64,000 nucleotides of DNA from Nitrospinota bacterium (lineage in GTDB: Bacteria > Nitrospinota_A > UBA7883 > JACRGQ01). Under the pieces are notes generated by a model. The model did not search any database. It was given only the letters and a program-made list of their open reading frames with translations, and was not told the origin of the DNA. The translations under genes and the position numbers were made by a program. Shown here piece by piece: positions 39,899-51,204 of this stretch (positions are counted from its first letter, which is position 1; each line of letters opens with the position of its first letter). The DNA lies in assembly GCA_016212275.1 (NCBI GenBank), contig JACRGR010000032.1, positions 367 through 64,366 on the forward strand, given 5' to 3'.

Positions 39899-42220
39899 AT
39901 GACCATAGCCATCACCCTCACCGCGATCGCCGCATTTTTATGCAAGCTTCCCTTCCTGCGTTTTCCGATGGACGAGGACTTCGCGTTTTACACCTACGTC
40001 CCCCACTTCCGCAAAGACGGGATACGGGTAAAAAAGGATTACCTGGCGCTGTTGCCCGCGTGGCGCACCAACCTCCTGTCGCTCGTGTACGGGAACGGGG
40101 GCTGGGAAAAAGGCGTGTTCCGCATACGCCTTGCGCTCGCACTGGCGCACGCGGCCACCGCGCTGGTGGTGCTGTGGGCAGGATTCGCGCTCACCCATTC
40201 CGTTTGGGCCGCGGCGGCGGCAGGCCTTCTGTACGCCCTGTTCGGCACGGCGCCCGCCCTTTCCTGCCACACCGTGAACATGGAGCAGGTATACCTCCCC
40301 TTTGCGCTGGGCGGAATGGTGATGTTCCTCGATGGAAGCTACGAAGTCTCCGCGCTCATGTTCGGCGTCGCCGCCATTCCGAAGATCGCGTCCGGCATAT
40401 ATGTTCCCCCGCTGACGCTCCTGCTGTGGCACCGCGCCGACCTTCCCACCGCGCTGGCCTTCGCCCTCATTTCCGCCATCCCGTCCGCGATATCCCTCGC
40501 CGCCGACCTGCTGGCCGGGTACGGCGACGCCGAGAGCCGCAATCAGATCCGCACACGCCTCGCCGTCGCCGTCCGGTTGCCGAAACTGAAAACGATCTAC
40601 GGCTCCATAAGGGACGACATCCGCGCAATCGTGCATGAAACATTGCCGGTGTGGGTGATCGGAGCGCCCGCCCTGGCGTTCGTCCCCTTCACCGCGGAAG
40701 GAATGGCGCTTTCCCTCTTCATCCTCATCACGCTTTCCATGATCTGGTTTCAAGGAGGCTATTCCCGGTACCACTATCTGCCGGTGGTGGCCCTGCTATG
40801 TGTAGCCACCGCGGCGGGGTTAAGCCACGCGGGACAATTCGCCGCCGGAATAATGGCGGCGTTTGCCGCCGCGTCCCTTCTCACCGCCTTCCGGCTATTC
40901 CCCTTTTATGCGCGGCCCCTCCATCCGCGCACACTGGCGCGGTACGACAAATTCGACCAGTACCTGTACCTCCCCCGGCTGGGAAAAGCGCTTGGGCGGC
41001 TCATGAAGATGCGCAAGGAAAATGGACGCATTTTCGTGTGGGGGAACTTCACCCAGCTTTACCAGTATGCCGGGCGACCCGCGTCGGATGAGTTCATCCA
41101 TTATGCCGTCGGCCCGTGGAACGACGAACGTCTGGCGGGGTATTTCGATACCATCATCGGCGGCATAATGCGGCACCGCCCCTTGTACATAATAAAATCA
41201 TTCCCCGACTTCGATATGGAACTTGTTGGAAAGACCACCGGATTGCGATACCGCCTGCTGAAGATATGGCTGGGCCGCTTCCCCGTCTATCGGATGGTTT
41301 CAGTTACAACCCCCGCGCAAGACCCGCTCACGCTCGACTGGCGAAAAAAAATGGACTTAATGGAGCAATTGACCAAAGGGAAACATACTCCGTGCATGGT
41401 GGAAAACGGCCAGCCCCCGCGGACGGCGATTAAAGAATGCCGAAGGCTTATCCGATTAAATTACAGCGATACCGAAGGGTTGTTTCATCTGGCCCGCCTG
41501 TATGAAGAAGCGGGGATCGAGGATTCGGAACTGGCGACGCTTTTTAAGCGGTTGATTGACGAGCGGCCCGGCCAGAAAATGGCGCGGCTGGCCTTGGCGA
41601 AACTCTGTATTAAGGGGAAGGATACAGCAACCGCCGCGTTGTATATCGCGGACGAAGAGCGTTTGTTCGGCGTTAGCGCGTCCACCCTTTTTTACCGGGG
41701 GCACTTGCTGAAAGGCGCCGGAGAGCCGCAAAAGGCGGCGGAGACATTCGCCGAACTTTGCCGGCGGGAACCCCTTAATGGCGAGTACGCCTTGTACCGT
41801 GCCGAGTGCCTGCACACGGCCGGGGAATATGCCGAGGCCCGGAGATCGTTCCTGCGGGCGTGGGACATGGGCGAACAACAGGAATGGATACGCACCCGCG
41901 CCGCGCTGGGGATCGCCGCGCTGGACGCGCCGGAAAAACGGGAGCATGAAACCATCGGGGAATTTATGGCAAAGGATGCCAAGAACCTGCCGCTGGCGTA
42001 TGCGCGCGCATCGGCGCTGGAACGGGACGGGCGGGCGGAAGCGGCGCGAAAAGAATTTTCGGACATCGCGGCATCGGACGCCGCCCCCGACATCAAGGGA
42101 GCCGCGCTATTCCGCCTTGCGCGGCTTTCCGCAAACGGCGCGCGCGCGGGACTGGCCCGGCAATGCTTGAAAATACTGCCGCACCACGGCGGCGCCAGGG
42201 AGCTTTTGAAGAATGGTTAA
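39899..42220 (+). CDS. GT-C-fold (ArnT/PMT-like) membrane glycosyltransferase fused to C-terminal TPR-like repeats
   Basis: DED in first loop, multiple TM helices, IFVWG, helical repeats (GLFHLARLY, TLFYRGHLL, ALFRLARL). Confidence 0.72.
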   Translation: MTIAITLTAIAAFLCKLPFLRFPMDEDFAFYTYVPHFRKDGIRVKKDYLALLPAWRTNLLSLVYGNGGWEKGVFRIRLALALAHAATALVVLWAGFALTHSVWAAAAAGLLYALFGTAPALSCHTVNMEQVYLPFALGGMVMFLDGSYEVSALMFGVAAIPKIASGIYVPPLTLLLWHRADLPTALAFALISAIPSAISLAADLLAGYGDAESRNQIRTRLAVAVRLPKLKTIYGSIRDDIRAIVHETLPVWVIGAPALAFVPFTAEGMALSLFILITLSMIWFQGGYSRYHYLPVVALLCVATAAGLSHAGQFAAGIMAAFAAASLLTAFRLFPFYARPLHPRTLARYDKFDQYLYLPRLGKALGRLMKMRKENGRIFVWGNFTQLYQYAGRPASDEFIHYAVGPWNDERLAGYFDTIIGGIMRHRPLYIIKSFPDFDMELVGKTTGLRYRLLKIWLGRFPVYRMVSVTTPAQDPLTLDWRKKMDLMEQLTKGKHTPCMVENGQPPRTAIKECRRLIRLNYSDTEGLFHLARLYEEAGIEDSELATLFKRLIDERPGQKMARLALAKLCIKGKDTATAALYIADEERLFGVSASTLFYRGHLLKGAGEPQKAAETFAELCRREPLNGEYALYRAECLHTAGEYAEARRSFLRAWDMGEQQEWIRTRAALGIAALDAPEKREHETIGEFMAKDAKNLPLAYARASALERDGRAEAARKEFSDIAASDAAPDIKGAALFRLARLSANGARAGLARQCLKILPHHGGARELLKNG

Positions 42221-43874
42221 AAAGAAGATCGCCGTTTTCGCCACCGAGCCGGTGACGGGAAACATCGGCGGGCTGGGCATCCGCCAGCTCGAGGTGGCGC
42301 GCGAACTTCACCGCAAGGGGTTCAGTGTGCGGCTCATCACCCCGTTCCCCGTGGGGGAGCACCGCGAAAAATTCCCGGTGGAGCATATTCAGTTTTTCCA
42401 CCACCCCGCGCTGGCGGAAGAACCTCTTCGGTGGGCCGACGCGCTATACGCCAGCCAGCCGTCGCCCCATTTCCTGCGGCTGGCCCGCGACATGAACAAG
42501 CCGGTGGCGGTGGACCTTTTGGCCCTGCTGTATTTCGAGGAACTGGAGCGGCTTCCCGTGGAACAGATGGGCGCCGCGGAACAGGGGGAATATTTTTCCT
42601 CCCGCGCATGGCTGGCGCAAAACCAGCTCGCGCTCGGCGATTTCTTCCTGTGTTCCAACGAGCGCGAGCGCGACTACTACCTCGGTTGCCTCACCCAACT
42701 CGGCAAACTCCCGCCGGACGTGTACCCGCGCGACCCGCTCTTCCGCTCCATAATTGACATTGCGCCGTTCGGCATCCCCCGGCGCGCGCCCCGGCGCGGA
42801 AAAAACCGCCTGCGCGGGGTGGTGCCCGGCATCGAAAAATACGATTTCATCCTGCTGTGGGGCGGCTCGCTATGGAACTGGTACGATTGCATCACCCCGG
42901 TGAAAGCGATGACGCGCCTTTTACGAAAATGCCCAAAGGCCAAACTGGTGTTCCTTGGCACCCAGCACCCCGCCACCTCGAAACCGACCGAAGCGTACCT
43001 GGAAGTGAAACGGTACGCGGAAAAGCACAAGCTCCTTGGCAAAAACGTCTTTTTCCACTCCCAATGGGTGCCATACGGCGAACGGGACCATTTTCTCACC
43101 GAATCAGACGCGGGAGTGGCCACGTTCCGGGACCACATCGAAAACCGTTTCTCGTTCCGCATCCGCCTCACCGACTGCCTGTGGGCGAACCTGCCGATCA
43201 TCACCAACCCCGGCAATACGGTAAGCGGCCTGATAGAAGGGAAAAACCTCGGAGTCATCGTTCCGTTCGGCGACGACAAGGCGGTGGCGGACGCGGTGGC
43301 CTGGATGGCGGCCCATCCGGCGGAAATGAAAAAAATGCGCCAGCGCGTCGCGTCCGCGAAAACGGCGTTCCATTGGGACCGGGTGCTCGCGCCGCTTATG
43401 CGGTTTTTCAAAAACCCGCAAAAGCGGCTCCCCGTCTTCCACCACGCGCTGGCGCGCCTTTCGTTCACCGAATTCAACCGGCGGGACTTCAAGCGCGTGC
43501 TATTCCTTCGCTCCGCGCCCATGCCACAGTGCGCCGAAGCGTTGAAGGCGGTCAGGAGCATCGCGCCACATGCCGCCATTGACCTCGTCATCCAGCCCGG
43601 AACGGATGCGGCGGCATTGGGTGGGGGGCTGAACCTCATCCCCCTGCCGGAAAACGGCTTCAGGCCGGAACATGCCGCCCTGGTGGCCGGCAAGGAGTAC
43701 GACCTGGTGCTATGCGCTTTCAACACGAACGATATGACCTTTTACGCCAATGTCGCCGCGTTCGCCAATAACGTGGTTGCGGGGCATTACTGGGCATTCG
43801 GGCACGACGGTCATTTCATGGACATACGCCCCCTGATGTCCGGCGGTGGTATAATCCCGGCGGTAAAACCATGA
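42213..43874 (+). CDS. GT4-like glycosyltransferase with extra C-terminal ~120-aa domain
   Basis: GGLGIRQ, LWGGSLWNWYD, SFRIRLTDCLWANLPII. Confidence 0.82.
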   Translation: MVKKKIAVFATEPVTGNIGGLGIRQLEVARELHRKGFSVRLITPFPVGEHREKFPVEHIQFFHHPALAEEPLRWADALYASQPSPHFLRLARDMNKPVAVDLLALLYFEELERLPVEQMGAAEQGEYFSSRAWLAQNQLALGDFFLCSNERERDYYLGCLTQLGKLPPDVYPRDPLFRSIIDIAPFGIPRRAPRRGKNRLRGVVPGIEKYDFILLWGGSLWNWYDCITPVKAMTRLLRKCPKAKLVFLGTQHPATSKPTEAYLEVKRYAEKHKLLGKNVFFHSQWVPYGERDHFLTESDAGVATFRDHIENRFSFRIRLTDCLWANLPIITNPGNTVSGLIEGKNLGVIVPFGDDKAVADAVAWMAAHPAEMKKMRQRVASAKTAFHWDRVLAPLMRFFKNPQKRLPVFHHALARLSFTEFNRRDFKRVLFLRSAPMPQCAEALKAVRSIAPHAAIDLVIQPGTDAAALGGGLNLIPLPENGFRPEHAALVAGKEYDLVLCAFNTNDMTFYANVAAFANNVVAGHYWAFGHDGHFMDIRPLMSGGGIIPAVKP

Positions 43875-45658
43875 AGATAGTGATAGCAAACCCGCCCGGA
43901 CACTTTCCGGGCAACCGGTTCCCTTGCCCGTTCCCCAGCCGGTGGACCTCCTTGTTCAAGGATTATCCGGTATTCACCTTCTTCCCCTACGAACTTGCGT
44001 ACCTTTCGTCCCTGTTGAAACGGGAACTGCCACAGGCACAGGTGAAAATGGTGGATGGAACATGGCTCCGCTTCACCGCCGAGGAATACATCCGCTGGCT
44101 GGAATGGCAAAAGCCGGATTGGCTGGTCTTTGAGACCGATACCGTCACCTACAAGGAAACGCTCAAGGTGGCCCGCGGTATCAAGCAAAAACTCGGCACG
44201 AAAATCATCATGACGGGGCAATACCCCACCGTTTTCCCGCACAAGGTGATTGAAGACGGCGCGGACTACGCCTGCATCGGCGAATACGAGGCGACGGTGC
44301 TCGACATCCTGAAAGGGAACGACCCGGCAACCATCCCCGGCCTGTTCCCGAAATCCCACCGGAAGGTGCTGGACATTGATTGGCTCCCCGACCCGGAGGA
44401 CGACGACATCCGCAGAATTGACTACAGCTATCCCGGCGGGTGCCGGTGGACCCGCTGGCGCTCCGTGGAAGTCCACGCCGCGCGCGGGTGCCCCTATTCG
44501 TGCGACTTCTGCGTGGCGGGCACCGTGTACTACGAAAAGAACAACTGGCGGTTCCGCAAGCCGGAGCGGATCATCGGCGAGATACAGAACCTGCGGCGCA
44601 AGTACCCCGGCATCGAAGGGGTGTTCTTCAACGAGGAAACGCACATCGTCAAGAAGAAAACCATCCTGGAATTCTGTGACGCCATTATCGCGTCCGGCAA
44701 CAACGACCTGCACTTCGAGGCGATGGCCAACCACCAGCTCCTTGACGACGAAATACTGGAAGCGCTCAAGCGCGCCGGGTATTACAAACTGCGCATCGGC
44801 ATCGAAACGGTGGATCCCGGCACGGCAAAAAGCATCGGACGGAAAACAAAAGCGGACAGCCTGTACCGCCTTTTGCAAACCGCCCGGAAGCTGGGGATCG
44901 AGATGTACGGCACCTTCATCATCGGCGCGTCCGGCTCCACCCAAAAAGGGGACTTCGCCACGGTGGAGTACGGCGGCAAACTGCTGGAAGAGCGACTCCT
45001 TTCAAGCTGGCAGGCTTCCATCGCGGTGCCGCACCCCGGCACGCCGTTCCACGAAAAGGCCCGGACGAACGGGTGGCTGGCCGAGGACGATCCGGAACAA
45101 TACAACGGCATCAACGGAAGCGTGCTCAATTATCCGAACTACCCGAAAGAACAGATACGGGAGACCATCCGTGTCATGGGGGATCGTTTTGCGTGTGCCG
45201 TGCAAACGCAAGAGCGGGACACGGTGCATTCGGAAGCGGGGAAAATAACGTGGCTGTCGCCGGAAGAAAGGGACGCGGTGCGCCCCCGGATGAAAGCGCT
45301 TGCCGCGGCGTACGATGCGGGTGACGATAACGGCGCGTTGGCCCAGGCACAAGAAATCCTCGCCGAATACCCCCAGGCATTGCGGCCACGATATGTCACT
45401 GCGGCGGTAAAGGAACGGACGGGCAACAGGGAGGCCGCGCGCAAAGGGTTCGAGGAGATCATCGCCCTCGCGCGGGATTACAACGACGCGATCCAGTTCG
45501 CGGGAGGGGCGCATTTCCGCCTTGGCGGGATGGCGCGCGATGAAGGGCGCGCCGAGGACGCTTTGCGCCACTTTAAACAGTGCATGCACCTGTATCCGGC
45601 CCACGAATTGGCGCGGCGGAACTATTGGGAACTGGAAACCGGAAACGGCAAGGCATGA
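43871..45658 (+). CDS. B12-binding radical SAM protein with C-terminal TPR
   Basis: FFPYELAYL, ARGCPYSCDFC, IGIET, PHPGTPF; TPR AHFRLGGMA. Confidence 0.9.
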   Translation: MKIVIANPPGHFPGNRFPCPFPSRWTSLFKDYPVFTFFPYELAYLSSLLKRELPQAQVKMVDGTWLRFTAEEYIRWLEWQKPDWLVFETDTVTYKETLKVARGIKQKLGTKIIMTGQYPTVFPHKVIEDGADYACIGEYEATVLDILKGNDPATIPGLFPKSHRKVLDIDWLPDPEDDDIRRIDYSYPGGCRWTRWRSVEVHAARGCPYSCDFCVAGTVYYEKNNWRFRKPERIIGEIQNLRRKYPGIEGVFFNEETHIVKKKTILEFCDAIIASGNNDLHFEAMANHQLLDDEILEALKRAGYYKLRIGIETVDPGTAKSIGRKTKADSLYRLLQTARKLGIEMYGTFIIGASGSTQKGDFATVEYGGKLLEERLLSSWQASIAVPHPGTPFHEKARTNGWLAEDDPEQYNGINGSVLNYPNYPKEQIRETIRVMGDRFACAVQTQERDTVHSEAGKITWLSPEERDAVRPRMKALAAAYDAGDDNGALAQAQEILAEYPQALRPRYVTAAVKERTGNREAARKGFEEIIALARDYNDAIQFAGGAHFRLGGMARDEGRAEDALRHFKQCMHLYPAHELARRNYWELETGNGKA

Positions 45659-47013
45659 ACCTCGTCTTCTGCTCCGCGCGGGCCGAGATCGTGGAGGCGG
45701 CGGTGAAAACATTACTCCCCGATGCGATGGAAGACGCCGTCCTGTTCACCGGCCCGGACAATTCACCTCTGCGCAGGCGCTACCCCAACCGTTTTTTAAG
45801 CTGGGGAAACGGTTACTTCAATTGGTCGGCGGCGATGGAACTGTGGAGCAGGCTGGAAGGCAATGCGCCGACCCGCTCGATCCTCCCGTTGAACAACGGC
45901 GAAGGCGAAGGATACGAAAAATTGCGGGCATTCGCCCGCCTCGTGACGCGCGGCGAAACCACCGAATTCACCCCGGACGGCGGCGCACGCCCGCTGACCG
46001 GCGGCGCGCTCATGCTCATGGTCAGGCCGGAGGAGCGGTGGCACGCCGGGATCATCACCCTGCTGGAACTGGCACGCCCCCTGCTCGGTTTTTCCGGGAA
46101 AGACGTTCCCGCCGCCATGCCGTGCGCCGTCACGGAATGCGCCACGGTCAGGGAGATGGAAACAGCGCCGGACATTTCGGTGGTCATCCGCGCCTTCAAC
46201 GAAAAAGAACTGCTGGAAAAAACGCTCTCGATGGTGATGGCCCAGGAAGGGGTGCGCGCCGAGACCATCCTCATCGATTCGGGATCCACCGATGGCACGA
46301 TGGAGATAGCAAAGAAATTTCCCGTGAGGATATTTTCCATCCCCAAAAACTCGTTCAGCTACGGCGCGGCGCTCAACCTCGGCGCGCGGCTGGCGCGCGG
46401 CAAGACTGTGGTGAACCTGAGCGCCCACGCCGTCCCCGCGGACATCCGTTGGTTGAAAGAGCTTACCGCGCCGCTGGCAGATGCGCGCATCGCGGCGGTG
46501 TACGGACGCGAACTGCCGATGGAGAGGCGGTGCGGCCACTTCGAGCGCAAGATACTTGCCGATTCGTTCGGGGAAACACCGAACGAAAGCTCGTCGAACC
46601 CGTTTTTCTCCAATGCCAATTCCGCCGTCCTGAAAAAACTCCTTATCGAACTGCCGTTCGACGAACAGGCGGGCTGGGCCGAAGACCAGATATGGGCGTA
46701 CGGGGTACAAAAGCGCGGCATGACCATCCGCTACCAGCCCGCCGCCGCCGTCCACCATTCGCACAACCTTTCGATGGCGGGAAACTTCGCCCGCTGTTAC
46801 AAATACCACCGCGCGATGTTCGGCGGAGCGTGGCAAGGGAAAGAAAGGGAAGTACAAAAGGCGTTCCGCGCCCGGTTGGCGCGCCGGAGCCTTTCCTTCC
46901 GCAGATTCCTGTGCGCAAATCGGCTGATGGGGACTATGGGGGCCGCGTTCTACGCGCCCTACTGCGAATTTGTGAACTACCTCGGATGCCGGGAAGCCGC
47001 GAACGGACAATAG
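45655..47013 (+). CDS. GT2 glycosyltransferase (rhamnosyltransferase-like) with extra N-terminal ~115-aa domain
   Basis: ISVVIRAFNE, IDSGSTDGT, FSYGAALNLG, FSNANSA, AED, HSH; ATGA overlap at 45655. Confidence 0.88.
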   Translation: MNLVFCSARAEIVEAAVKTLLPDAMEDAVLFTGPDNSPLRRRYPNRFLSWGNGYFNWSAAMELWSRLEGNAPTRSILPLNNGEGEGYEKLRAFARLVTRGETTEFTPDGGARPLTGGALMLMVRPEERWHAGIITLLELARPLLGFSGKDVPAAMPCAVTECATVREMETAPDISVVIRAFNEKELLEKTLSMVMAQEGVRAETILIDSGSTDGTMEIAKKFPVRIFSIPKNSFSYGAALNLGARLARGKTVVNLSAHAVPADIRWLKELTAPLADARIAAVYGRELPMERRCGHFERKILADSFGETPNESSSNPFFSNANSAVLKKLLIELPFDEQAGWAEDQIWAYGVQKRGMTIRYQPAAAVHHSHNLSMAGNFARCYKYHRAMFGGAWQGKEREVQKAFRARLARRSLSFRRFLCANRLMGTMGAAFYAPYCEFVNYLGCREAANGQ

Positions 47014-47015
47014 AA

Positions 47016-48557
47016 ATGAGATCCACCCGCACCGCGGATGACGACTGGAAAGAACGGGCCGTCCACGTCTCCTCCGGTCCCGCGTATCTGACCGTCCTCT
47101 CCACCGGAAGGTGCAACCTCGCCTGCTTCATGTGCAGTCACAGTTTCATCAAGGAAACGCCGGTCGTGTTTACCGTGAATATGCTCACACCGTGGCTGAA
47201 GAACGCCCGGCGCGTGTTTCTGGCGGGCGGGGAACCCTTGTGGATGACCGATGCCGTGAACCGCGCGGCAAAGGAGATATTCGAATGCCTTGTGCGCGAC
47301 CACCCGAACGTAAAGATCAACGCCTATACCAACGGCGTCCTTCTGGACGAACGGATGGCGGAGATGGTCATGGAGCGGTTCGAGACCATCCAGTTCTCGG
47401 TGGATTCTGTAAACCCGGCGGTGTACGCGAAAGTGCGCGGCAGGCCGCTTTTGACGACGGTGCTGGAGAACATGGAACGGCTGGCGGAGATGAAACGCAA
47501 ACGCGGGCTTGCCTCCGCCGACCATCCGCACATCAACATGAATACCATCGTCATGCGCTCCACGGTGAAAGGATTGCCCGATGTGGCGCAAATGCTGGCG
47601 CGTCTGGGAGGAAACAAACACTGCCTCGTGAAACTGCGCGACACAATCGGCCATGATCACGCGAAGATGGCGGCGGACATGCTGAAGGAAAACCGCATGC
47701 CGGATACCCCGGAAAACCGCGCGGCGGCGCTCAAAACGATAGCCGCGAACCAAGCGGCGATACTGGAGGAAATTTATCCGGCGGAGACGGTGCCACCCGC
47801 GGTCGCTGAACGCCTGAACGGGATATATGCCGCGAACGGTATCACGGTGGAAGACCAGGGATATTTCCTCGGCGGCGGAGTGGCGAAACCTCTTCCCTCC
47901 GGGGCCGATGCGGTCTGCTCCGCCCCGTGGGTAACGGCCGACATCCGCGAGGACGGCAACGTGTACTGCTGTTGCGCCCACACCGAAATACTGGGAAACG
48001 TGAAAGAGCGGAGCTTCGACGAGATTTGGAACGGCCCGAAGATTAAAGCCATCCGCGCGGCGTTCATCCGGGGCGAAATGAAGGGGTGCATCCAGAGCGG
48101 GTGCCCTTCCGTGTTCGACTACTTCAAGGTGGGGCCGCAATCATACTCTTCCCTCCTGCTGGACAACCTTTTGCGGGAATGGGACGGCACGAAACCGCCA
48201 AGTTCGATCATAATGTTGCGGAGCGCGCCCGACTACCAGTCGCATCTGGTCGCGCGCACTTTGCTGAGGGCGTTTCCCGGAGCGCGGCTGACGGTGGTCA
48301 CGAATCAAGCGGGAGAAGCTTCCTGCCGGGCTTGGGGCGTCGAAAACATGGCGGTACTCGCCTACCCCGGCGCCACCTTCACGCCGGAAGAGTTTTCCCG
48401 GTGGTGGCGACCGCCGAATGGCGATCATTCCCTCGCGGCGCTTTTGTACAACCGTGAGGATCACACCGGTTATGGAAGCGTGGAAGAAGTCTTGCGTTCT
48501 ATCGGCGCGGGCCGCGCCCTCGGCATCGCGCCGGGCGGCGCCCTCACCCGCCTTTAG
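47016..48557 (+). CDS. Radical SAM/SPASM(Twitch) protein with extra C-terminal ~120-aa domain
   Basis: CNLACFMC, GGEP, YTNG, CSAPW, DGNVYCCC, SFDEIWNG; start trimmed to ATG 47016. Confidence 0.88.
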   Translation: MRSTRTADDDWKERAVHVSSGPAYLTVLSTGRCNLACFMCSHSFIKETPVVFTVNMLTPWLKNARRVFLAGGEPLWMTDAVNRAAKEIFECLVRDHPNVKINAYTNGVLLDERMAEMVMERFETIQFSVDSVNPAVYAKVRGRPLLTTVLENMERLAEMKRKRGLASADHPHINMNTIVMRSTVKGLPDVAQMLARLGGNKHCLVKLRDTIGHDHAKMAADMLKENRMPDTPENRAAALKTIAANQAAILEEIYPAETVPPAVAERLNGIYAANGITVEDQGYFLGGGVAKPLPSGADAVCSAPWVTADIREDGNVYCCCAHTEILGNVKERSFDEIWNGPKIKAIRAAFIRGEMKGCIQSGCPSVFDYFKVGPQSYSSLLLDNLLREWDGTKPPSSIIMLRSAPDYQSHLVARTLLRAFPGARLTVVTNQAGEASCRAWGVENMAVLAYPGATFTPEEFSRWWRPPNGDHSLAALLYNREDHTGYGSVEEVLRSIGAGRALGIAPGGALTRL

Positions 48558-49732
48558 CGGTTTTTCAGGAACGTCTCGAACTCGCGGCGCACGGAGGCCG
48601 CCAGCGTTTTATCCGCGAACAGTTTGCATACCGTGGCGGCAAGCGCGGTGGTTGCCTTTAGCAGGGCATCCTCGCCGCGTTTTGAGACCACCGCCTTCAA
48701 AAATTCGCGCGAGTGGTTCACGATATGCGGATCGCTCACCGCGAACTCCGGGTGCAGGCACGGCACGACCTGCGAGAGGTTGCCGATGTCGGAAGAGCCT
48801 ATTTCCTCGTTCTCCGGGATGCCCGCGTCCTTCAGCCCCAGCGCTTCGGCGTACGGACGGAACACCTTGCCCAGCGTCCGGTTCGGCTCGAACGGCTGGT
48901 ACACCAGCGGGTTTTTCACGACTTTCAGTTTGCACCCGGTGGCGCGCGCGGACGCTTTCGCGCAGTCCGTCACTTTCGCCAGCATGTAGCGGAAATCCGC
49001 CATCGTGATGCCGCGCACGAAGAACTTCGCCGACGCGAACTCCGGGATGATGTTCGGCGCGTCGCCGCCGTGCGTCACAATGCCGTGTACCCTGCTGAAA
49101 TTCGGCGTCTGCTGGCGCAGGGCGTTGATGGAATTGAACAGCATGATCACCGCGTCCAGCGCGTTTATCCCCAGTTCCGGGTGCGCGGCGGCGTGCGACG
49201 CCTTGCCGTAATACTTGAACTCTATCTCCATTACCGCCAGCATCCGGGCAACGGTGCGGGTGTGGTTCGCCGGATGAACCATCAGAGCGGCGTCCACCCC
49301 TTTGAACCATCCTTCCTTTATCATCATCAGTTTGCCGCCGCCCCCTTCCTCGGCGGGCGTGCCTACCACCTTCAGGGTGCCGCAGTTTTTCCCCAACAAA
49401 CGCCGCACGGCGACCGCCGCGCCGAACGAGGCCGCGGCGATCATGTTGTGCCCGCAGGCATGGCCGATGTTTGGGAGCGCGTCGTATTCCGACAGGATGG
49501 CGACGACCGGCCCCTTGCGCGATCCGCGCCACGTCGCGTCGAACGCCGTTTTCAGCTTCCCCGCCCCGGCCCGCACCGCAAACCCTTCCTCCGCAAGCGC
49601 GGAGGAAATGTGCCCGGCGGCGAACCGCTCGTTGAAGTTCAGTTCCGGCCTTTCGAAGATGCACCGGTTCATTTCGATGATGCGGGGGGCCAGGTCCCGC
49701 ACCGCCTTTTTCGCTTCCGATAAATGCTTCAT
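48554..49732 (-). CDS. M20 family amidohydrolase (PM20D2/AbgB-like)
   Basis: EYDALP, HACGHN, GTPAEEGGGGK, GKASHAA, GSSDIGN. Confidence 0.92.
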   Translation of the reverse strand: MKHLSEAKKAVRDLAPRIIEMNRCIFERPELNFNERFAAGHISSALAEEGFAVRAGAGKLKTAFDATWRGSRKGPVVAILSEYDALPNIGHACGHNMIAAASFGAAVAVRRLLGKNCGTLKVVGTPAEEGGGGKLMMIKEGWFKGVDAALMVHPANHTRTVARMLAVMEIEFKYYGKASHAAAHPELGINALDAVIMLFNSINALRQQTPNFSRVHGIVTHGGDAPNIIPEFASAKFFVRGITMADFRYMLAKVTDCAKASARATGCKLKVVKNPLVYQPFEPNRTLGKVFRPYAEALGLKDAGIPENEEIGSSDIGNLSQVVPCLHPEFAVSDPHIVNHSREFLKAVVSKRGEDALLKATTALAATVCKLFADKTLAASVRREFETFLKNR

Positions 49733-51111
49733 GTCATGATGTTCCTTGCAACGCGGATGTAATACAGTTCCTTGGGGATCTGCTCGTTCTCGCAGTAGTT
49801 GCAATCCGCGAGGAGTTTGATGTCCGCCAGCGTGCGCTCGTCCCCTTCGAACTCAACCATCTCCAGTCCTTCATCAGCCGTCACCCCACCCGCCTCCAGC
49901 AGATCCAGCACCGAGCGCGCGTCGAACTTGCGGTCCCCGACCACCAAGAAGGCGTCGGTGCCGTGTTCTTCAACCACCAGCGTGACGTAGTATGCGGGGC
50001 GCGCGTGGAACCCGGCGGGCTTGGGAACCGGCACGGAAATGCGCGTGATGCGGGAAAGCCGGGTCATCACTTTTTCCGATACGCTTTTTCCCATCATCAT
50101 GTAGCGGTGCGCGTAGAACAGACCGAAATCGGATATGAGTCCCAGCACGATTTTCTTGTCCACCAGCCCCGCGATGCGGTCGCGGCTTTGGTCGGAATGG
50201 ATATCATTCTCATGCCGCTCGTAGAAATGGATGAGCCAGCGGGCCATCTCGAACAGGTGCATGGGCGCCGATATGAACGCCCGTAAACTCACCAGGTCCG
50301 GATCGCCCATTTCCTCCCGCGTCTGGCGGATGTGGGTGTCGTATTCCGACTGGATGTTGTGCAGGGCGCTTTCCAGAATTTTAACCTTTGTCTCGTTGAT
50401 CCGCGCCGGGATGAGTTTCGCGAACTCCTCCGCCGGCGTCTTTTTGCCGTACCGCTCGCGGTTCACGCGGACCGCCACCTTGCGGTAACTCTCCACGATG
50501 TGCATGATCATCCGGTCGCTGGTCTTGTACACTTCCGTTTCCATGTTGCGCGGGAGCTTGGCCCTGCTGACGATCTCTTTGAAACCGCCGGGCGCGAGGC
50601 TGGGCATACCTATGTCGCACCCCCGGCGCTTGAGTTCTTCCACCGCCTCGCCGGCGAGGGCCGTCACGATGCCGTTGATATACTCCATCGCCTCTTCGCC
50701 GTGGGCCAAAAACTCTTCGGTGGAATGTTCCGGCTCCGCCGGGTGGTAGTCGTGATACCGGCTGAGCAAATGGCTGAGTTGGAACGCCGCGATGGCGAAA
50801 TTGCGGATGCTGGCGACAAGCTCCCGGAAATAGACCCACGTGCGGTTTTCCTTCGCGCCGTGGTCGTCCAGAAACACCTCCAGCTTCTCCGCCTCGTTCA
50901 TCAGGTTGAAGTAGAACCGGTTGTTGAATATCCGCTTGTCGATGGTGGGGAGCAGGGCCAGCCGGAAAAACGGCAGGGAGGTTTCCTCCAGCGGCTTGAG
51001 GAACTCCTCTTCGCTGATAATGGTATGGAGCGACCGGTGCAAAGGGAGTGTCCCTCCCGTCCGGCTTTGCACATCAACGCCGCCGGCGGGCGTGGTATTT
51101 TCTTCCGTCAT
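49729..51111 (-). CDS. Large helical domain fused to C-terminal HPr domain
   Basis: GFHARPA (His15 motif) and DARSVLDLL (Ser46 motif) in the last ~100 aa. Confidence 0.82.
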   Translation of the reverse strand: MTEENTTPAGGVDVQSRTGGTLPLHRSLHTIISEEEFLKPLEETSLPFFRLALLPTIDKRIFNNRFYFNLMNEAEKLEVFLDDHGAKENRTWVYFRELVASIRNFAIAAFQLSHLLSRYHDYHPAEPEHSTEEFLAHGEEAMEYINGIVTALAGEAVEELKRRGCDIGMPSLAPGGFKEIVSRAKLPRNMETEVYKTSDRMIMHIVESYRKVAVRVNRERYGKKTPAEEFAKLIPARINETKVKILESALHNIQSEYDTHIRQTREEMGDPDLVSLRAFISAPMHLFEMARWLIHFYERHENDIHSDQSRDRIAGLVDKKIVLGLISDFGLFYAHRYMMMGKSVSEKVMTRLSRITRISVPVPKPAGFHARPAYYVTLVVEEHGTDAFLVVGDRKFDARSVLDLLEAGGVTADEGLEMVEFEGDERTLADIKLLADCNYCENEQIPKELYYIRVARNIMT

Positions 51112-51204
51112 ATTCAATCCTCGACACATTCTAATTCCTAATCGTGTGCGCTTTCAAACCATTCCTCAAACCGGTGTACAATAGCCGCCAGACGCAAGGA
51201 GGAT

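Follow-up and report, generated by a model that had tools for sequence, protein, structure and literature searches.

The stretch of DNA analysed here (the window, 64,000 nucleotides; positions 367 to 64,366 of contig JACRGR010000032.1, assembly GCA_016212275.1, from a Nitrospinota bacterium) carries an operon of five tightly packed genes on the + strand (39899-48557), whose boundaries overlap or lie 2 bases apart (Table 1). Three of the encoded enzymes, a GT4 glycosyltransferase, a GT2 glycosyltransferase and a radical SAM/SPASM enzyme, share a domain of about 120 residues, for which the working name X domain (X) is used; its three copies are called GT4-C, GT2-N and rSAM-C after the host enzyme and the terminus occupied. 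Pfam and NCBIfam models recognise only the catalytic parts of these enzymes and leave about 120-130 residues over at the C-termini of genes 2 and 5 and at the N-terminus of gene 4. An earlier reading made from the DNA letters (the sequence-only reading) had described a common, uncharacterised domain in these places; the segments lie where it had put them and show the motifs it quoted, and they fall outside all models of the Pfam and NCBIfam copies searched. It can be held with great confidence that the three segments are copies of one domain and that this domain is kin to the N-terminal lobe of GT9 heptosyltransferases.

Table 1. Genes of the operon and copies of the X domain (window positions; aa, amino acids; TPR, tetratricopeptide repeat)
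Feature	Position	Strand	Description
Gene 1	39899..42220	+	Polytopic membrane protein, 773 aa; six hydrophobic segments; C-terminal TPR region (Pfam); no X
Gene 2	42213..43874	+	GT4-type (GT-B) glycosyltransferase, 553 aa; Pfam Glycos_transf_1 at 230-378; X at C-terminus
X copy 1 (GT4-C)	43485..43835	+	GT4 residues 425-541; conserved R433, S434, F483, D497, N504, Y511
Gene 3	43871..45658	+	B12-binding radical SAM enzyme, 595 aa; C-terminal TPR region; no X (Pfam)
Gene 4	45655..47013	+	GT2 (GT-A) glycosyltransferase, 452 aa; Pfam Glycos_transf_2 at 175-285; X at N-terminus; start codon overlaps gene 3 stop, orthologue starts agree
X copy 2 (GT2-N)	45655..46014	+	GT2 residues 1-120; N80, N81, G84, Y87 kept
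Gene 5	47016..48557	+	Radical SAM/SPASM (twitch-like) enzyme, 513 aa; Pfam Radical_SAM 29-160, SPASM 301-358; X at C-terminus; start read from sequence
X copy 3 (rSAM-C)	48195..48554	+	Radical SAM residues 394-513; conserved R402, S403, F455, N479, Y486

In pairwise BLASTP, GT4-C and GT2-N matched at E 7e-5 with 28% identity over 114 residues, rSAM-C and GT2-N gave E 0.33, and GT4-C and rSAM-C gave no match at E<=100. A word-indexed search with the GT4 tail recovered the query alone among 1045 candidates. A single-sequence search of the bacterium's own genome also returned nothing but the query; the copies there were found with a family profile. In four genomes of the same family the GT4 tail directly matches the tail of the radical SAM orthologue (E 7e-8 to 5e-5). 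The profile comparisons used orthologue alignments from eight same-family genomes, namely A1 for GT4-C (8 rows), A2 for rSAM-C (7 rows) and A3 for GT2-N (6 rows), together with a merged alignment of 21 rows (A4), a family profile of 96 rows (A6) and a 13-row alignment of GT2-N-type sequences only (A7). Hhalign gave 98.0% for A1 with A2 (E 2e-13), 84.7% for A1 with A3 (E 7e-6) and 80.1% for A2 with A3 (E 1e-5), all three pairs aligning end-to-end over 102-114 columns in the same register, and six comparisons with reversed partners stayed at or below 0.7%. An outside profile, made from 80 short family members and holding no rows from the window or its orthologues, matched A1, A2 and A3 at 99.6%, 99.7% and 98.8%, respectively (E 1e-24, 7e-26 and 1e-16; 117-118 columns). 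In the merged alignment one Phe and one Tyr are invariant and one Pro and one Gly nearly so; the most divergent copy is GT2-N. The common domain proposed by the sequence-only reading is thus confirmed by profile-profile comparison, by the reversed controls, by the outside profile and by two AlphaFold models.

These models, made with AlphaFold2 for GT4-C with the merged alignment (predicted local distance difference test, pLDDT, 94.5; predicted template-modelling score, pTM, 0.89) and for GT2-N with A7 (pLDDT 92.2, pTM 0.87), agree in the order of their elements, E-H-E-H-E-H-E-H-E-E, that is, four strand-helix units followed by a strand hairpin. A fold common to these two copies is thereby borne out, and the predicted fold of X is a Rossmann-like three-layer alpha/beta sandwich. 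Foldseek against the PDB returned no match at E<=1e-3, listing generic Rossmann-like proteins only. Both models were also compared by VIA-align with 48,161 chains, for which the tool's own note gives Z values of 7-9 as typical background. For the GT4-C model a GT9 enzyme, 3tov_B, came first (Z 8.9, root-mean-square deviation 2.9, 107 residues aligned, residues 2-147) and the heptosyltransferase RfaF, 1psw, seventh (Z 8.3), with universal stress proteins (USPs) and CARF domains within 1 Z unit of GT9 (3tnj 8.7, 9jxw 8.7, 7bdv 8.5). For the GT2-N model the top match was a CARF domain (8bao, Z 9.0), a dehydrogenase NAD domain reached 8.9, and 3tov_B and 1psw stood at ranks 25 (Z 7.0) and 47 (Z 6.6).

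The parentage of the domain emerges from sequence profiles. The family profile A6 aligned by hhalign with nine GT9 N-lobes from the phylum at 99.2% (E 3.7e-19, 121 columns); five of these nine proteins were checked, and all five matched PF01075 (1e-25 to 6e-39). Controls with the GT9 C-lobe, the GT4 N- and C-lobes, the B12 domain, the GT2 core and the radical SAM core gave 0.3-13%, the GT9 C-lobe standing at 1.1%. By group, A1 reached 92.8%, A2 95.7% and A4 97.0% against the GT9 N-lobes. Searched against all PDB sequences, A6 found RfaF 1psw as its best match (E 5.7e-5, residues 14-90, in register), followed by two PnsB1 entries, which we take to be GT9-like, and then four more GT9 entries. 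NCBIfam heptosyltransferase models were matched weakly, in register, at the N-terminus by six of ten stand-alone X members, and in the bacterium's own genome the family profile also matched a 356-aa PF01075 heptosyltransferase (E 2.6e-7). The resemblance to a GT9/GT-B N-lobe noted in the sequence-only reading therefore holds, and with controls at or below 13% is firmer than a resemblance. Two other origins were considered. That X is the N-lobe of the GT4 enzyme itself was rejected, hhalign against the GT4 N- and C-lobes giving at most 0.7%, and kinship with USPs, CARF domains or dehydrogenases has no support in sequence, no USP or CARF domain appearing among 17 profile matches to solved structures.

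X and the GT9 N-lobe have in common the motif hLhhR at strand 1, FPxAxIxhL at strand 2 and (Y/F)DLhh at strand 4, and homology to the GT9 heptosyltransferases (WaaC/RfaC, WaaF/RfaF; PDB 1psw, 2h1f/2gt1, 6dfe, 3tov) extends across the lobe, from strand 1 to strand 5/6. The two differ after strand 1, where GT9 enzymes of the phylum have R-x-x-x-I-G-D and X has R-S-A-x-M-x-Q in a loop three residues shorter, so that the Gly-Asp (GD) motif is missing; the Asp of this motif is the catalytic base of WaaC. A hallmark of X is NNxxGxGYxNV, after strand 4. PF01075, which covers mainly the later part of GT9 heptosyltransferases, matched neither the three window proteins (E<=1) nor the ten stand-alone members (E<=10). 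Unlike GT9 lobes, X is joined to non-GT9 enzymes or free-standing with a hydrophobic tail. From its profiles and motifs, X is judged to be a descendant or a sister of the acceptor lobe at the N-terminus of GT9 enzymes, and not itself a GT9 enzyme; since both the donor lobe and the GD motif of GT9 are missing from it, it is considered non-catalytic.

The family is rare, a search with the merged profile finding 231 clusters at E<=1e-3 (31 at E<=1e-10) among 1.84 billion representatives. The best 150 of these 231 clusters divide into 89 shorter than 250 aa and 61 longer. Among the 61 long members, the Pfam partners are Radical_SAM (17), Glycos_transf_1 (GT1/GT4; 15), SPASM (12), Glycos_transf_2 (9), B12-binding (5), methyltransferases (2), GT20 (2) and DegT aminotransferase (1), in architectures such as X-GT4 with a second X, GT2-TPR-X, GT2-X, methyltransferase-X and doubled B12-radical SAM with X. 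The domain occupies the N-terminus in 25 of them, the C-terminus in 33 and an internal position in 2, and 1 has no X by hidden Markov model. A C-terminal hydrophobic segment is present in 50 of 71 complete-looking stand-alone X proteins. For ten stand-alone members no Pfam family, Alg14 included, was listed at E<=10, and the ESM Atlas clusters of such members are labelled "hypothetical protein", with no Pfam 38.1 family. X is thus autonomous: it stands alone, sits at either terminus and joins unrelated catalytic folds, mostly of sugar pathways. A GT4 homologue of 389 aa in genome G033 covers residues 2-401 only of the window GT4, which marks X as an add-on, and radical SAM/SPASM homologues that have no X also exist. 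A listing of other carriers, which the sequence-only reading had called for, yielded GT2, GT4, B12-radical SAM, radical SAM/SPASM and methyltransferase enzymes besides the stand-alone form.

Directly after X in the window GT2 enzyme, at residues of about 120-150 (within window 45655-46100, +), lies a conserved amphipathic helix (PEE+WHA...). In X-GT2 proteins it sits where stand-alone X proteins have their hydrophobic tail, and it may be a membrane-interface helix.

Two further X copies occur in the bacterium's own genome outside the window operon. One is a stand-alone X of 174 aa with a C-terminal hydrophobic segment (C41:16234-16758, +; L033:8234-8758), whose start overlaps the stop of a GT2 gene and whose 3' neighbours encode an ATP-grasp protein (PylC-like), a Gfo/Idh/MocA oxidoreductase and a CTP_transf_3 cytidylyltransferase. 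The other lies in a group of genes (C15:15269-19583, +; L034:6269-10583) for a GT2 enzyme with TPR (349 aa), a B12-radical SAM enzyme with X (587 aa) and a GT4 enzyme (502 aa), the B12-radical SAM enzyme having X in place of the TPR of window gene 3. Another homologue of gene 3, P0020 (phmmer 1e-120), likewise has X at 463-582, where gene 3 has TPR.

Among 33 genomes of the phylum that were searched, 24 have a match at E<=1e-8, some of them true GT9 enzymes, and in 11 of the 33 at least two non-GT9 X copies lie within 20 kb. One such cluster in the phylum holds two X-radical SAM/SPASM genes, two X-tailed radical SAM genes (B12-binding by Pfam in one), one anchored X, three further radical SAM genes and two GT4 genes. 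Another (L064, G015:C33:28000-44000) has GT2-TPR, B12-radical SAM-X, an anchored X and two X-radical SAM genes, together with genes for a SIS-domain protein and for a PfkB kinase that is fused to a cytidylyltransferase-like domain. The latter two look like genes of ADP-heptose synthesis, a possible hint that the heptosyltransferase-derived domain goes together with heptose chemistry. The L064 cluster also contains an APS-kinase-like gene and a gene for a 964-aa protein with faint NHL/beta-propeller matches only.

In the window operon itself, every protein carries X or TPR. The membrane domain of gene 1 has no Pfam match; its N-terminal approximately 470 aa look like a PMT_2/ArnT-type GT-C glycosyltransferase, and comparison of gene 1 with PMT_2 clusters of the ESM Atlas gave a feature score of 0.99 and a template-modelling score (TM) of 0.80. 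PMT_2/ArnT-type GT-C enzymes have polyprenyl-phosphate-linked sugars as substrates, and a GT-C membrane domain with a long TPR region is the architecture of the eukaryotic TMTC protein O-mannosyltransferases. Gene 3 has an HpnJ-like match in NCBIfam, far under the cutoff. The operon is kept, with gene order unchanged, in genomes of the same family, and full-length GT4 orthologues (49-64% identity) were found in 8 of 13 other same-family genomes searched.

Some orthologues depart from the window arrangement. In some related genomes the orthologue of gene 3 is about 880 aa long and combines B12-radical SAM, TPR and a class I SAM methyltransferase (Methyltransf_25, E 1e-22), as at L017:8495-11137 (-) of G011 and similarly in L019 and L020; the window copy has no methyltransferase domain. 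At L018:826-4187 (-) of G005 there are two tandem, diverged radical SAM/SPASM-X genes with 39% and 36% identity to the window protein. The flanks of the operon are unrelated, with Obg and a PilZ protein upstream on the opposite strand and an M20 peptidase downstream. The window also encodes, at 49729-51129 (-), a 466-aa protein with no Pfam family at E<=1e-4 and a sub-threshold PTS-HPr-like stretch near its C-terminus (residues 365-414, E 0.003).

As to function, the polar positions of X that are best conserved are those after strands 1, 2 and 4 (Arg-Ser, Gln and Asn-Asn...Gly-x-Gly-Tyr). That edge of a Rossmann-like fold forms the ligand crevice; in the N-lobes of GT-B enzymes it serves as the acceptor face. 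Since the patch is kept whatever the host enzyme, it is read as the place where one ligand or partner common to the hosts would bind, and the Gly-rich helix start together with Arg-Ser suggests a phosphate group. The reading we favour, although we give it a little less than an even chance, is that X is a portable targeting module that binds a common lipid-linked, phosphate-bearing intermediate, so that its host enzymes act on the same carrier-bound substrate. Arg-Ser, Gln, Tyr/Phe and Asn-Asn-x-x-Gly-x-Gly-Tyr, which follow strands 1, 2, 3 and 4, respectively, would line the crevice, and the crevice would bind a membrane-proximal, probably phosphate-bearing ligand common to the hosts. As this ligand we envisage an intermediate that the operon makes, either a lipid-linked sugar or a glycolipid. 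The GT4, GT2 and radical SAM enzymes would act on it in turn on the cytoplasmic side of the membrane, and the PMT_2/ArnT-like membrane enzyme encoded by gene 1 would use the product afterwards. Gene 1, through the polyprenyl-phosphate sugars used by its class, supports a lipid-linked pathway as the context, and the hydrophobic segment at the C-terminus of most stand-alone X proteins points to a link with the membrane. The clustering of non-GT9 X copies within 20 kb in 11 of the 33 phylum genomes also speaks for this reading.

Several observations weigh against this picture, from the parentage of X to the ligand site. Taken alone, A3 reaches only 0.3% against the GT9 N-lobes, so that the GT2-N copy is tied to GT9 only through the wider family. 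The short members of the outside profile were themselves recruited with a profile containing the three window groups. The fold searches are generic, with USP, CARF and dehydrogenase NAD domains equalling GT9 for the GT4-C model and beating it for the GT2-N model; structure thus says Rossmann-like and no more. The GT2-N copy has Cys for the family Arg after strand 1 and the GT4-C copy is without the two glycines, hence one identical ligand site in all copies is not assured. X and TPR share the C-terminal position in homologous B12-radical SAM enzymes, and the ligand-binding step is purely something that we infer.

The exchange of X for TPR bears most directly on a different explanation, in which X is a protein-protein docking module that brings about a membrane-associated enzyme complex, any ligand binding being secondary. 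TPR being a protein-binding module, its interchange with X at the C-terminus of homologous B12-radical SAM enzymes favours docking, as does the presence of X or TPR on all operon proteins; moreover, different enzymes of the same cluster carry X copies, frequently next to an anchored X that stands alone, and the split glycosyltransferase Alg13/Alg14 offers a precedent. On the other hand, judged from general knowledge of the fold, the conserved residues line a classical small-ligand crevice and not a flat surface, the window operon has no stand-alone anchored X, and to our knowledge GT9 N-lobes are not known as oligomerisation modules. A predicted complex of the GT4-C and rSAM-C X domains, run without controls, scored 0.00 (mark 0.32) and speaks neither for nor against binding. 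Docking is regarded as rather unlikely, albeit the main rival, and the partners proposed for it (other X domains, the TPR regions of gene 1 and gene 3, or a stand-alone X anchored in the membrane) are put forward just as tentatively.

The remaining explanations carry less weight. X could sense a small molecule (a nucleotide, a second messenger or a cofactor) and so regulate the enzymes to which it is attached, in the manner of USP or CARF domains, both of which are among the best structural matches of the two models; their Z values, however, lie within the typical 7-9 background, the sequence profiles point to GT9 N-lobes instead, the partners are almost all enzymes of sugar pathways, and stand-alone X proteins have no effector domain, which makes a sensor improbable. 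It is more improbable still that X is an integral catalytic part, for instance an additional subdomain by which each enzyme binds its own substrate, rather than an autonomous shared module: X is kept in all orthologues of the three enzymes across the eight related genomes, but it is attached, at one terminus or the other, to at least six unrelated catalytic folds and occurs by itself as well, homologues of the catalytic domains exist that have no X, and the catalytic Pfam domains lie outside it. That the segments are unrelated, their similarity being due to chance or composition, would agree with two of the three BLASTP pairs falling short of significance and with the word-indexed search that returned its query alone; the profile comparisons, reversed controls, outside profile and two concordant models contradict this, so that it is already refuted and its probability is negligible.

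Besides GT9, two known systems offer comparison with X. Alg14 is the membrane-anchored, N-lobe-like half of a split GT-B enzyme and recruits the catalytic half, Alg13. Stand-alone X would be similar, being likewise one half of a GT-B enzyme that is free-standing, anchored in the membrane and without catalytic activity of its own, but its anchor is C-terminal and that of Alg14 N-terminal, and X has radical SAM, GT-A and other folds as partners and not a GT-B C-lobe. The second system is the PqqD-like recognition element (RRE) of ribosomally synthesised and post-translationally modified peptides (RiPPs), likewise a small non-catalytic domain found on several tailoring enzymes, radical SAM/SPASM enzymes included, and also free-standing. 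X differs from it in fold, alpha/beta Rossmann-like as opposed to the winged helix of the RRE, in its partners, which are mostly glycosyltransferases and sugar-type enzymes, and in an operon that leaves no room for a precursor-peptide gene. No small open reading frame adjoining the operon genes was found, and a RiPP cluster was rejected, the genes being too tightly packed for a precursor gene. The functional half of the sequence-only reading, a putative role in acceptor recognition or docking in the manner of an RRE, fits the distribution of X. A bolder version, which is no more than tentative and which we think rather doubtful, would make X the carbohydrate-pathway counterpart of the RRE, a heptosyltransferase-derived carrier-recognition domain marking all enzymes that act on one lipid-linked intermediate; the intermediate would then possibly be lipopolysaccharide-core-like or heptose-containing.

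No description of the X domain was found in full-text searches of the literature, judged by titles and abstract openings. Its fold and parent family are known; new are its portable, accessory use on GT-A, GT-B, radical SAM and methyltransferase enzymes and its anchored stand-alone form. X would show that half of a GT-B glycosyltransferase can be put to new use as an independent accessory module attached to catalytic folds of other kinds. Glycan clusters contain many radical SAM and B12-radical SAM enzymes, mostly with no known substrate, and a shared recognition or docking domain offers a handle on them: X would tell which enzymes share an intermediate, would provide a small soluble bait for that intermediate or for a partner, and could act as a sequence signature for such clusters. 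If carrier recognition is indeed its role, X would define, and allow one to mine, a new class of radical-SAM-rich glycoconjugate tailoring clusters, covering radical SAM and B12-radical SAM enzymes with sugar or lipid substrates not yet known.

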